Made by a program: the position numbers and the translations under genes
Source of the DNA: a virus
Taxonomy: Duplodnaviria > Heunggongvirae > Uroviricota > Caudoviricetes
IMG/VR virus record: IMGVR_UViG_2740892014_000012
DNA: 16,521 nucleotides
Direction: 5' to 3' (one strand)
Part shown: positions 4,853-7,374 of the stretch, one piece after another
Layout: every line of letters starts with the position of its first letter
How positions within the stretch are numbered: the first letter of the stretch is position 1
Notes under the pieces: model-generated
What the model saw: only the letters and a program-made list of their open reading frames with translations
Told to the model about the DNA's origin: nothing
The model's database searches: none

Positions 4853-5143
4853 TTAGTGATTCAGGCCGTTGCCGCGTCCGTCGAGAAAAACTTCCACGAG
4901 CAAATCACGGGTATAAGTGCGCTCGATGCCGCGATGCAGATAAAGCCGTCCGCGTAAATTAGCTGATGCAGTCCAGGTACCATCTTTGTGTTTGACCAGC
5001 ATTCCTGGCATGACCGCACCGCGATTAACGGTCTGCGTTCCGTAATGTTGATGAACCATAAAAACTCCTGCCCGTAAGCTGGGCTGCTGAACATATAGAG
5101 ACTTCTGCGCGTATTCAGGCGGTGGATGGCCGCCGGTTGTCAT
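4853..5143 (-). CDS. Hypothetical protein (96 aa), first ORF downstream of pL, in the kil/cIII position
   Basis: Codon composition looks coding in this frame. No similarity recognised to lambda N, cIII or Kil as recalled. An internal start (MVHQHY...) is possible. Function unknown. Confidence 0.45.
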
Positions 5144-5334
5144 AACTAAGCCGCCTCGTTGAAGCGACTAAGGTATGAAATGTTGAGTTAATTTCAGCTG
5201 GTCACACCGACGTTCACGCGTCCGTTTCACCCCTCGCACTCCCCGAAGCCTGCTGAAATTCAAACTGCGGATCTAAGCGGTCATCGCAACGGTGAATCAG
5301 GTAGTTGCCGTATCGTTGTGTTGTTGCGATGAAC

Positions 5335-5415
5335 TTATTTAAAACTATAGTTGTTTTATCGTCAACAACAAAAGTTGTTTTATTGGTTGTTTTAGATATA
5401 ACTGGTTGTATTTAG
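5335..5415 (-). promoter_or_regulatory. pL-like promoter with OL operator cluster
   Basis: Minus strand reads GTTGTTGACGATAAAACAACTATAGTTTTAAAT: TTGACG, 17 nt, TTAAAT. This is nearly identical to the pR module on the other side of cI (GTTGTTGACTAAAAACAACCATAGTTTTAATC). Repeated GGTTGT(T/A) half-sites in both orientations at 5349..5413. Confidence 0.55.
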
Positions 5416-5505
5416 GATGGATTTATTTTGTGACTTGAATCGCATAGCGATAACTGAAGCGAGGTTATGGTGGTTTTTTTAACGGTGTGTGTGATGAGGG
5501 GAGGG

Positions 5506-5533
5506 CAAAAGAAAACCCGGCACGGTGACCGGG
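5506..5533 (-). terminator. Intrinsic terminator downstream of cI
   Basis: On the minus strand: CCCGG..CCGGG stem (5-bp GC stem, 8-nt loop) followed by TTTTCTTTTG, about 120 nt after the cI stop. Confidence 0.55.
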
Positions 5534-5654
5534 ATTCTTACGCCGTTAGGTAAAGATATTATTGCGGTGGCTTAATATTACTACCTAGAGCAAAGATAGG
5601 AATTAGTTCTTTACTGAATGAGCACAATGCCCAGTTGATAATTTTTAATTGGTA

Positions 5655-6344
5655 CTACCCATGCTTCCTATATGTCTGCGGCATGCTCCCAATAACCTTA
5701 CCGAAGATGAACACCCGGTTCATCTCGTCTTTCTCGATCGGGTCCCACGGTGAGTAGCTTTTGTTATCAGAGATGACCAGCAGCTTATCCTTCATCATTT
5801 GCAGGCGCTTTACATGGGCTGTGTCGTCGTACAGAAACGCATAGATACCATCACCGTCGAAAGATTTAACTGTGATATCAACGAACAGCAGATCACCTGG
5901 TTCGATCGTTCCTGACATGCTGTCACCACGCACGTTAATGATGCGGATATTTTCCGCCTTCCTACCATCGAACATGTGACGAGCATCGTCAAACGAGTAC
6001 TCAACCGAGCGTAGAACTTCTACAAACTCACGGTTGATGACTCCCGGCCCAGCACTGACTTCTATATCAAGAACGTCAATCTTGAAGTATTTGGAATGGC
6101 TGACAGTTGATTGTATTGGTTGCACTGTACTGTCTGACATATTTCCAACGCCAGAAGATAACCATTCTGCGCGCACACCCAAAGCGTTCGCGATCTCCAC
6201 GATTTTAGTTGTTTGATTAGCTTTCCCTGTTTCGATTTTCTGAATAGCAGCCTGGCTAACCCCGACCAAATCCCCAAGCGCCTTTTGTGTAAGGCCTCGC
6301 GCTAATCTGGCTTCTTTAAGTCTTTCTGAGAGTGTTGTTTTCAT
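5655..6344 (-). CDS. cI: cI-type prophage repressor with N-terminal HTH and C-terminal LexA-like S24 autopeptidase domain (229 aa from the proposed start)
   Basis: HTH LTQKALGDLVGVSQAAIQKIETGK; S24 motifs VRGDSMSGTIEPGDLLFVD (Ser) and HVKRL (Lys); candidate Ala-Gly cleavage site in VSAGPG. The ORF-track start at 6410 lies inside the operator/promoter; the ATG at 6344..6342 (MKTTLSERLKEA...) sits 6 nt after a TACATT -10-like hexamer, suggesting a leaderless pRM-type transcript. Confidence 0.85.
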   Translation of the reverse strand: MKTTLSERLKEARLARGLTQKALGDLVGVSQAAIQKIETGKANQTTKIVEIANALGVRAEWLSSGVGNMSDSTVQPIQSTVSHSKYFKIDVLDIEVSAGPGVINREFVEVLRSVEYSFDDARHMFDGRKAENIRIINVRGDSMSGTIEPGDLLFVDITVKSFDGDGIYAFLYDDTAHVKRLQMMKDKLLVISDNKSYSPWDPIEKDEMNRVFIFGKVIGSMPQTYRKHG

Positions 6345-6448
6345 AGTCCAAATGTACAACCAAGGTTTTATTCCATCAAACGAAAATGGTTGTTGACTAA
6401 AAACAACCATAGTTTTAATCTTGATTCAAATTAACCACGGAGGTTGTT
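6345..6448. promoter_or_regulatory. Divergent OR / pR / pRM region
   Basis: Perfect 9-bp inverted repeat ATGGTTGTT-N7-AACAACCAT (6386..6410) overlapping a TTGACT -35 (6393..6398), 17-nt spacer, TAATCT -10 (6416..6421). GGAGG SD at 6437..6441, 7 nt before the cro ATG. Additional GGTTGTA half-site at 6355..6361 (minus orientation). Confidence 0.6.
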
Positions 6449-6679
6449 ATGAACCCAGCTATCAAAACAGCGATCAATATCGTTGGTTCACAAAAGAAAC
6501 TGGGCGCTGCTTGCGAAGTTTCACAGCAGGCCGTCTATAAGTGGCTTCACAACAAAGCAAAGGTATCCCCTGAACATGTCGGCAGCATTGTTACGGCTAC
6601 TGGTGGAGTAGTGAAGGCATACCAGATTCGCCCGGATCTTCCGAAGTTGTTTCCACACACCGAAAAGAACGCAGCTTAA
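6449..6679 (+). CDS. cro: Cro-like HTH regulator (YdaS/Cro family), 76 aa
   Basis: First gene of the rightward operon, divergent from cI; HTH-like segment QKKLGAACEVSQQAVYKW; good RBS. Confidence 0.78.
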   Translation: MNPAIKTAINIVGSQKKLGAACEVSQQAVYKWLHNKAKVSPEHVGSIVTATGGVVKAYQIRPDLPKLFPHTEKNAA

Positions 6680-6691
6680 ATTTCCATTTCA

Positions 6692-6704
6692 CGCTCTTTA
6701 ACAA
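6692..6704 (+). promoter_or_regulatory. boxA-like element (CGCTCTTTAACAA) in nutR position
   Basis: Matches the boxA consensus (rrn/phage CGCTCTTTAACAA) 13 nt downstream of the cro stop. No convincing boxB hairpin follows. Confidence 0.45.
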
Positions 6705-6748
6705 TAAGCAATCAACTTAACAGTCAATTCAAACTAAAGGAGTCAATT

Positions 6749-7288
6749 ATGCAACCACTTACATACCAACAGACTAGCGGATTTAGCCCGACTGCGGTGA
6801 TAAATCGTTCTCAAACAAAACAGGTGCCAGGCCACGAAAAAATCCGTGATGCCGTCCGCGCCTGGTCGGCTGTAGATAATCAGGATGTCGTTGCCACACT
6901 CATTGTGAATGAGTATCTGGAGCAGGGCGGCGGCACCATCGATTTCCCTGATGATGTCAGCCGTGCACGCCAGAAGCTGTTCCGCTTCCTCGATAACAAA
7001 TTCGATTCTGAAAAATACCGAAATAACGTGCGTGAACTGACCCCGGCAATTCTGGCGGTACTACCGCTGGAATATCGCGGTTACCTGGTTGAGCAGGATA
7101 GCTTCATGGCTAGGTTGGCTGAAATGGAAAAGGAACTCAGTGAGGCAAAACAGGCTGTCATTCTCAACGCACCACGCCACCAGAAACTGAAGGAAATTAG
7201 TGAAGGTATTGTGTCGATGTTTCGTGTGGACCCAGATCTGGCTGGTCCATTGATGGCGATGGTTACTACCATGCTGGGGGCGATATGA
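6749..7288 (+). CDS. YdaT-family protein in the cII position (putative CII-equivalent regulator), 179 aa
   Basis: Position immediately after cro; motifs NEYLEQGGG and LTPAILAVLPLEYRGYL resemble YdaT-family proteins as recalled; AAAGGAG RBS 6 nt upstream. Family assignment is from memory, not from a search. Confidence 0.55.
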   Translation: MQPLTYQQTSGFSPTAVINRSQTKQVPGHEKIRDAVRAWSAVDNQDVVATLIVNEYLEQGGGTIDFPDDVSRARQKLFRFLDNKFDSEKYRNNVRELTPAILAVLPLEYRGYLVEQDSFMARLAEMEKELSEAKQAVILNAPRHQKLKEISEGIVSMFRVDPDLAGPLMAMVTTMLGAI

Positions 7289-7374
7289 CAGGTTCAGAAA
7301 TGGCGAAAGCCGGTCTGCTGGAACAGAACCGACTTTCAGGTGCAAATCGTAACACACTCATTGCGGGAGGAATT

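Follow-up and report, generated by a model that had tools for sequence, protein, structure and literature searches.

The window analyzed here, the whole 16,521-nucleotide (nt) stretch of IMG/VR virus record IMGVR_UViG_2740892014_000012, is the early region of a lambdoid prophage. To the right of its cI gene, a probable promoter PR, which lies within an inverted repeat (6386-6410), would probably transcribe a cro-like gene, a short untranslated spacer carrying a consensus boxA, and a gene for a YdaT-type analogue of CII (here ydaT), behind which come O and P (Table 1). This boxA, which sits at the position of a nutR site, is our subject, and on comparative grounds we hold with moderate confidence that it is a vestigial nutR half-site, its hairpin having been deleted in a phage that has neither N nor nutL. 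From 5100 to 7300, the window matches Escherichia phage PhiR34_1 at 100% identity; it is also close to IdasGreatGrand, Turner, other PhiR phages, and the Bievrevirus phages 4A7 and Perceval.

A consensus boxA between cro and ydaT

The initial annotation described an orphan boxA behind cro, and this was borne out. The 13-mer CGCTCTTTAACAA has just one exact copy in the window, both strands considered, and occurred in none of 200 dinucleotide-preserving shuffles. Its 11-nt core, GCTCTTTAACA (6693-6703), fits GYTCTTTAANA and is the sole match in the window to this consensus at one mismatch or fewer. Compared with the boxA of rrnG (UGCUCUUUAACAA), 12 of 13 positions are equal, and the core GCUCUUUAACA is identical. 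The distance from the cro stop codon to boxA is 12 nt, compared with 6 nt in P22 and 7 nt in both lambda and PA28/933W-type phages; from boxA to the ATG of ydaT (6749) it is 44 nt, or 45 nt when counted from the end of the core.

The same annotation saw no boxB hairpin, and RNA folding agreed. Folds of 6676-6760 (-4.1 kcal/mol; z score, -0.15) and 6680-6751 (-3.7 kcal/mol; z score, -0.44) revealed no significant structure 3' of boxA, and the fold of 6600-6712 (z score, -0.47) revealed none 5' of it. The mean pairing probability of the spacer is 0.33, versus 0.54 for the transcript, and an Rfam scan of the whole window at E values up to 1 returned zero matches. A pairing of boxA with the Shine-Dalgarno sequence (GCUCUUU with AAAGGAG), which appears in the minimum-free-energy fold, was rejected, its energy being no better than that of shuffled sequences. 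The 44 nt 3' of boxA are A rich and lead into the ribosome-binding site and the open reading frame (ORF). Both pairs of direct repeats that had been reported were located: TTAAC at 6698-6702, within boxA, and at 6717-6721, and the two copies of AGTCAATT.

A two-part boxA-hairpin element in related prophages

Contigs encoding Cro proteins 76 to 88% identical to that of the window were looked up without reference to the boxA motif. In one that has a YdaT-type cII gene (L330; Cro, 84% identical), CGCTCTTTAAAAA is followed after 19 nt by the hairpin GGCUGA-AUUA-UCAGCC. In a pair with a classical CII (L331/L334; Cro, 82% identical, the protein being named Citrobacter koseri by its source), 18 nt separate boxA from UGGCUGA-GGAA-UCAGCCA, and in another (L335; Cro, 83% identical; source name, Kosakonia cowanii), 19 nt separate it from CGGCUGA-UUCU-UCAGCCG. 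A fourth relative (Pluralibacter) has boxA and a different hairpin; more distant Cro relatives either show boxB hairpins resembling those of P22 or lambda or have nothing there. A pattern scan for boxA, a gap, and GGCTGA-N3-6-TCAGCC found 52 stretches in at least 36 distinct contexts, the stems being fixed by the search pattern; the matches lie behind differing cro alleles and ahead of both YdaT-type and classical cII genes.

The element that emerges consists of boxA, an A-rich spacer of 18 to 21 nt, and a GGCUGA/UCAGCC hairpin with a 6- to 7-bp stem and a variable tetraloop, placed 3' of cro. Its loops were of the GNRA or UNCG type in 17 of 36 cases, against a chance expectation of about 5% by our own calculation, a bias that points to a hairpin acting as RNA rather than as a DNA palindrome. 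About 26 of the 39 prophages with the GGCUGA-type element and enough flanking sequence also carry a phi80-like nutL, a hairpin directly followed by TGCTnnTTAACA, on the left-operon strand 1.2 to 3.3 kb away. A BLAST comparison of the two-part element with named phages gave no match to the element itself. The loci that carry it are L096, L121, L330, L331/L334, L335, and L337-L386.

Probable loss of the hairpin through a 12-nt deletion in the common haplotype

The hairpin is also found behind the same cro as in the window. Approximately 47 of the approximately 1515 Escherichia coli genomes that carry this module keep a longer, hairpin-bearing spacer, and the rest have the deletion described below. 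In L327 and L329, the spacer reads CGCTCTTTAACAA-TAAGCAATCAACTTAACA-GACTG-ATTAA-CAGTC-AATTC, and the loop of L326 is ATGAA; all three would form a 5-bp hairpin, GACUG-AU(U/G)AA-CAGUC, 18 nt 3' of boxA. The second pair of the stem is A-U in these E. coli haplotypes and G-C in other members, with the change on both sides, which reads as a compensatory change. The hairpin lies within the minimum-free-energy folds of L327, L330, L334, and L335 but not within that of the window.

The window is exactly the hairpin-bearing sequence minus the 12 nt ACTGATTAACAG. In L327, these 12 nt lie between two copies of TTAACAG, of which the window keeps one, and in our alignment (A1) the window has a clean gap (columns 32-46) over the 5' arm and the loop, flanked by TTAACAG. 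Since the outgroups have the hairpin, and since the 12 additional nt do not simply repeat neighboring sequence, we infer that a deletion by slippage took place in the majority lineage, making the deletion the derived state. The boxA and its spacer align with those of the two-part element and the hairpin is absent, so the window holds a truncated derivative of that element, not an intact member. That only approximately 47 of approximately 1515 carriers keep the hairpin indicates that it is not maintained.

The left operon has no N and no nutL

No N-family protein was found in the window with either Pfam or PHROGs, as the initial annotation had it; the PL leader leads straight to kil. Searches of the small left-operon ORFs against the same two databases returned only xis, a DksA-like gene, kil, and unknowns, and no hidden N. 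On the strand of the PL transcript (minus, 5140-5340), there is no boxA-like sequence even at 3 mismatches, and a phi80-type nutL is absent from the PL leader of the window, where homology to phi80 and L096 picks up again only some 25 nt ahead of kil. The hairpin-bearing E. coli relative L326 likewise has neither nutL nor a gene at the N position. Because both it and the window lack this equipment, the nutR-type element appears to have been orphaned before the hairpin was deleted, and orphaning followed by loss of the hairpin is the order that decay predicts.

The PL leader drew attention in its own right. Its approximately 190 nt (5144-5335, minus strand) are conserved across N-less Bievrevirus-like phages with differing immunity modules, in 46 distinct variants that show about a dozen common single-nucleotide polymorphisms (SNPs) and almost no indels. 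It holds a TTG-initiated ORF of 31 amino acids (5168-5263) that has no family match and contains GVKRTRERRCDQLK, the only arginine-rich stretch there; the common SNPs within the ORF comprise 5 synonymous and 3 nonsynonymous changes. The TAG stop codon of this ORF is CAG in 32 of the 46 variants, which places it in frame with the kil-like ATG, and Perceval annotates a 139-amino-acid "Kil." As a candidate N, the leader ORF was rejected, neither it nor the 139-amino-acid in-frame extension in Perceval having an N-family match. The leader allele (TAG or CAG) showed no usable association with the hairpin state, only 3 hairpin loci being informative. In relatives with nutL, the hairpin takes the form GGC(N)GAC...GUC(N)GCC with a boxA-like sequence directly 3' of it, and the ORFs at the position of phi80 N are wholly different among phi80, L096, and L334.

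Distribution and conservation of the boxA module

Of 5426 complete E. coli genomes, 1515 (about 28%) carry the cro-boxA-ydaT spacer, 1469 of them at 99% identity or more. For a view of the boxA itself, 190 loci derived from IMG/VR were retrieved by their flanks alone, with the boxA left free to vary; not all are independent, some being stretches of one contig. The same 17-mer spans boxA in 187 of the 190, two differ just upstream, and one has TTTGACAA in place of TTTAACAA. The 3' end of cro and the boxA spacer co-occur in all 190, so that boxA travels with cro, and negative-base patterns placed after boxA and after ATCAAC found no cro-boxA segment in IMG/VR with a different continuation.

The expectation that boxA would be conserved in close relatives held within the cro module, where it is invariant in 189 of 190 copies, and failed in sister phages that have other cro modules. 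Where the same ydaT (product 98 to 100% identical) stands behind another cro, the spacer is 30 nt long and has no boxA. Spacers of 22 to 30 nt without boxA separate cro from cII in the sister phages 4A7, Perceval, and PhiR68_2 and in HK639, phi80, and Rac. The boxA-less sister phages, which were deposited as phage genomes, share ydaT, O, P, and the left arm with the window; because the same ydaT occurs behind a different cro without boxA, the backbone does not need it. A boxA does precede the YdaT-type genes of L330 and L096, though there it is accompanied by the hairpin. A scan of genome contigs for YdaT gave pattern matches, none of which was confirmed.

L326 differs from the window by 4.5 to 5.9% in cI, cro, and ydaT. 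Its sole change in boxA is C to T at the pyrimidine-degenerate position, giving GTTCTTTAACA, a suhB-type boxA, and its spacer differs by 4 SNPs in 69 nt, against a neutral expectation of about 9 that we estimated from 10 synonymous changes in cro, a marginal difference.

Interpretation and alternative explanations

If the boxA is a vestigial nutR half-site, the ancestral state would have been a two-part nutR-type element 3' of cro, as in many lambdoid prophages of Enterobacterales. The E. coli lineage would have been without the matching left-operon equipment (a phi80-type nutL and an N-position gene), and in its common haplotype a 12-bp deletion between two TTAACAG repeats would have taken the 5' arm and most of the loop. 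The remnant could not then assemble an N-type processive antitermination complex, and it is on this account that we regard it as vestigial. A relic nut site was one of three possibilities raised in the initial annotation, and it gains from the fixed distance of the hairpin in relatives, from the minority haplotype that keeps the hairpin behind the same cro, and from the exact 12-nt difference. The boxA RNA likely still binds NusB-NusE, since it is rrn-like and NusB:NusE binds the boxA of rrnG at 5 to 8 nM, compared with 80 to 90 nM for that of lambda nut (PMC2800207); any leftover effect is probably N independent and small.

Several observations weigh against decay. The boxA is undamaged in nearly all of the retrieved copies and in about 1500 E. 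coli genomes; the one change in L326 stays within the consensus and matches suhB; the L326 spacer has changed somewhat less than the neutral estimate; and the stem invariance of the two-part element, imposed by the search pattern, is no evidence of conservation. The boxA core also lies within the distance that defines candidate BoxA-regulated genes, namely, a GYTCTTTAANA match no more than 50 nt ahead of a start codon (Baniulyte et al. 2017, PMC5725501). Finally, nowhere is the PR operon more rut-like (rich in C, poor in G, and unstructured) than around boxA, which sits in the least structured part of the transcript, the top ten 78-nt windows by C minus G between 6400 and 9100 all beginning at 6648-6690. 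The intactness of boxA fits a retained N-independent function and fits equally a module too young to have decayed, most carriers being at least 99% identical.

These points bear on the main rival reading, possible but in our judgment unlikely, in which boxA is a working N-independent Nus-factor element, the rrn-type site dependent on NusB/NusE alone that the initial annotation had also suggested. NusB-NusE bound to the PR transcript would recruit NusA, NusG, and SuhB, with either of two outcomes: RNA polymerase would be shielded from Rho at the rut-like spacer and onward, as in rrn operons and the leaders of clustered regularly interspaced short palindromic repeats (CRISPR), or translation of the YdaT-type cII gene would be reduced and Rho-dependent polarity would follow, as in suhB. 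For such an element speak the intact consensus, its resemblance to an rrnG boxA that NusB:NusE binds about 10-fold more tightly than the lambda boxA, the C-rich and G-poor spacer, the 45-nt gap, and an L326 variant that does not leave the consensus; context supplies these arguments, and beyond it no positive evidence was found. There are precedents. For untranslated CRISPR arrays, boxA by itself suffices as protection from Rho (PMC7665894), and suhB and a C. koseri ParE-like toxin gene, both of which were tested, are repressed through boxA; inserting as much as 100 nt does not abolish this repression, and in suhB a rut site overlaps boxA (PMC5725501). Yet the sister phages that share ydaT, O, and P with the window do without boxA, which would make such a role dispensable, the module has diverged too little for intactness to show selection, and one natural copy carries a consensus-breaking A-to-G change. 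BoxA-type complexes are described as preventing Rho termination (PMC7665894) and are not known to read through intrinsic terminators, and a strong intrinsic terminator stands between PR and the nin/Q region. Nor is a ydaT-type gene named among the E. coli rows examined in the published list of boxA-preceded genes, where suhB, prsA, two cI/cII entries, and one unnamed hypothetical protein appear; in the supplementary files that were covered, neither "ydaT" nor the boxA 13-mer gave a match. That boxA outlasted the loss of its hairpin and N system because it serves on its own as a Nus-factor site, tying ydaT, O, and P to the availability of NusB, NusE, and SuhB and to Rho, seems to us doubtful. 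If true, it would place suhB- or rrn-like control in a prophage of about 28% of complete E. coli genomes. Equally doubtful is the related idea that selection favored the loss of the hairpin itself, which might, for instance, have let the phage evade Nun-like exclusion proteins directed at orphan nut sites.

A DNA-level explanation can be argued from YdaT itself, which is a functional equivalent of CII; the YdaT proteins of CP-933P and Rac footprint the end of ydaS and the start of ydaT, recognizing TTGATT-N6-AATCAA (PMC9986795, PMC11879457). The 13-mer might then be part of a YdaT operator or of a leftward PRE-like promoter, both of which lie between ydaS and ydaT in those prophages, or else a chance match. 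An AATCAA half-site does occur at 6710-6715, six nt past the TTAACA inside boxA, along with TTGACT-like hexamers on the minus strand. We nevertheless find this improbable in the extreme when set against the absence of the exact 13-mer from the shuffles and the recurrence of the same boxA, equally spaced from cro, in relatives whose flanks are unrelated and whose CII is classical. A YdaT operator in the spacer was rejected as a candidate: 99%-identical YdaT works in phages whose spacers do not contain the boxA sequence, which makes an operator there unlikely. The remaining suggestion of the initial annotation, a nut-site part served by an N supplied in trans from another resident lambdoid prophage, fared worst, and we give it practically no weight. 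A consensus boxA at the nutR position is all that the window offers in its favor, together with the fact that E. coli often harbors several lambdoid prophages (a 2.2-kb query matched at up to 7 places in a genome). N-type proteins recognize and require the boxB hairpin, and the window has none in the spacer or upstream; it also has no nutL, and the hairpin of the majority haplotype is deleted.

The site and its variants amount to a set of naturally occurring alleles: spacers with and without the hairpin, boxA copies with a C-to-U or an A-to-G change, and a spacer in which a 19-nt duplication doubles the ribosome-binding site. Such a set could test what a lone consensus boxA does in mRNA, beyond suhB and the CRISPR leaders.

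Other features of the early region

Features of the window are collected in Table 1. An inverse autotransporter and a convergent esterase lie as cargo between P and the nin-region genes.

Table 1. Coordinates of features in the window
Feature	Coordinates	Strand	Remarks
Left arm		-	int, xis, small ORFs, exo, bet, gam, kil-like gene (Pfam, PHROGs)
kil-like gene (PHROG 294)	4853..5143	-	First left-operon gene; N-bearing relatives have N then kil there
Probable PL promoter plus leader of about 190 nt into kil-like gene	5144..5365	-	TTGACG at 5365-5360
PL	about 5337-5365	-	
cI, S24-type	5655-6344		Terminator after cI
Probable PR promoter	6393..6421	+	TTGACT, 17 nt, TAATCT; read from sequence
cro-like gene, 76 amino acids, YdaS/Cro family	6449..6679	+	Pfam YdaS_toxin/P22_Cro
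cro-ydaT spacer, untranslated, 69 nt	6680..6748	+	27 A, 21 T, 15 C, 6 G; weakly structured
boxA, CGCTCTTTAACAA	6692..6704	+	Exact consensus
Spacer TAAGCAATCAAC between boxA and presumed former hairpin	6705..6716	+	Aligns with the A-rich 18- to 21-nt spacer of relatives (alignment A1)
TTAACAG, sole copy left, probable deletion scar	6717..6723	+	12 nt (ACTGATTAACAG) missing relative to hairpin-bearing haplotype
CAGTC, probable surviving 3' arm of former hairpin	6721..6725	+	No partner in window
AGTCAATT direct repeats	6722-6729, 6741-6748	+	Spacing, 19; flank Shine-Dalgarno AAGGAG (6737-6742)
YdaT-type cII analogue, 179 amino acids	6749..7288	+	Pfam YdaT_toxin, PHROG "CII-like"; first gene 3' of boxA
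Inverse autotransporter, 1421 amino acids	9252-13517	+	IAT_beta, Invasin_D3, Big_1 repeats; cargo between P and nin
Strong bidirectional intrinsic terminator	13529-13549		GGGGAGGGCTTAGCCCTCCC then T-run; between autotransporter and esterase
Esterase (BD-FAE), convergent cargo gene	13554-14597	-	

PhiR34_1 has DLP12-like cargo where the window has the autotransporter and esterase, and PR transcripts can reach the nin/Q region only by passing the terminator at 13529-13549, in a phage without N. The interval between cI and PL (5400-5655 in the window) is a hotspot of variable inserted genes among otherwise near-identical prophages. Relatives carry there an ASCH domain, a BamE-like lipoprotein, GevT/GevA, a Panacea domain, DUF6932, HicAB, DUF7946/7947, or RexAB; in the window, it is empty except for a terminator-like hairpin (5516-5533).

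Around the boxA, the segment 6722-6748 is indel prone, and slippage tends to affect the 3' half of the spacer. In E. coli KE21 (L328), 19 nt (TCAATTCAAACTAAAGGAG) are duplicated in tandem between the AGTCAATT repeats, so that two Shine-Dalgarno sequences precede ydaT, and 8 IMG/VR copies have a 1-nt deletion in the spacer, GGAGCAATT. In many cro homologues, the stop codon lies inside a terminal hairpin (GCCGCC-UAA-N2-4-GGCGGC), among them those of phi80, HK639, 4A7, Perceval, Klebsiella ST101-KPC2phi6.1, UPF_BP1, and L331. The cro of the window ends in GCAGCUUAA, without the 3' arm of such a hairpin, as does that of the Kosakonia relative L335.

The 14-mer CGCTCTTTAACAAT is widespread in unrelated IMG/VR contigs (L086-L205), 62 of its 109 distinct contexts lying outside long ORFs. 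In a recurrent setting, a GC-rich hairpin stands directly 5' of boxA and TCTGGA follows, the order of rrn and phi80 nutL; in L183 and L195, boxA lies just upstream of phage tRNA genes. The family of two-part boxA-hairpin elements and the conserved PL leader may merit more attention than the orphan boxA itself.

Comparison with known systems

The put RNAs of HK022 and HK639, antiterminator RNAs of N-less lambdoid phages that need no protein, invite comparison, since HK639 has cI, cro, and then a YdaT-type cII, with no N. However, HK639 has no boxA after cro, and the 69-nt spacer of the window is unstructured and far too short for put, which takes about 70 to 125 nt and two or three stems. A put-like RNA was rejected: by eye, neither the spacer nor the PL leader resembles HK022 or HK639 put, and there is no Rfam match. 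In the P22-like Salmonella phage UPF_BP1 (L210; cro 68% identical), a sequence between cro and cII (2796-2912) matches HK022 putR nearly base for base over the stretch compared by eye. What stands behind cro genes of this family thus varies among phages: a nut site, a put RNA, or neither.

The rrn boxA, which is bound by a complex of NusB, NusE, NusA, NusG, SuhB, and S4 that prevents Rho termination in a BoxA-dependent manner (PMC7665894), matches that of the window closely enough for strong NusB:NusE binding to be expected by analogy. The window differs in having no upstream boxB-like hairpin and in having translated genes downstream rather than a long untranslated RNA; by reading, the spacer also contains no sequence like boxC. 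The boxA sites of suhB, the C. koseri ParE-like toxin gene, and Salmonella CRISPR share with it the fit to GYTCTTTAANA, the short gap, and the C-rich, G-poor RNA. Unlike them, the boxA of the window is intercistronic, behind cro, rather than in a 5' untranslated region; it is confined to one prophage immunity module, and comparative data indicate that it derives from a two-part nut-like site.

In phi80 (NC_021190), N, a nutL boxA, a nutL core, and tL1A/B are annotated, with N and tL1 downstream of the nutL boxA. The window has a phi80-like kil gene, and its PL transcript is phi80-like at the 5' end, but the window has neither nutL nor a gene at the N position, and the 30-nt cro-cII spacer of phi80 has in turn no boxA and no annotated nutR. 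A further parallel is nutR of lambda, P22, and 933W/PA28, a boxA plus boxB site used by N with NusA, NusB, NusE, and NusG, which likewise lies a few nt past the cro stop codon and before cII. PA28, which has an annotated N, shares the boxA core (CGCTCTTTAACA), its cro being 67% identical to that of the window, and the lambda boxA lies within rutA of tR1 as that of the window lies in a rut-like stretch. From these sites the window differs in having no boxB hairpin, no N, and no nutL, and even the ancestral hairpin, with its conserved stem, variable tetraloop, and distance of 18 to 21 nt from boxA, differs from the boxB of lambda, P22, and PA28, which is loop specific and 7 to 10 nt away. A spacer so common in E. 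coli is best annotated as a degenerate nutR rather than as an active nut site.

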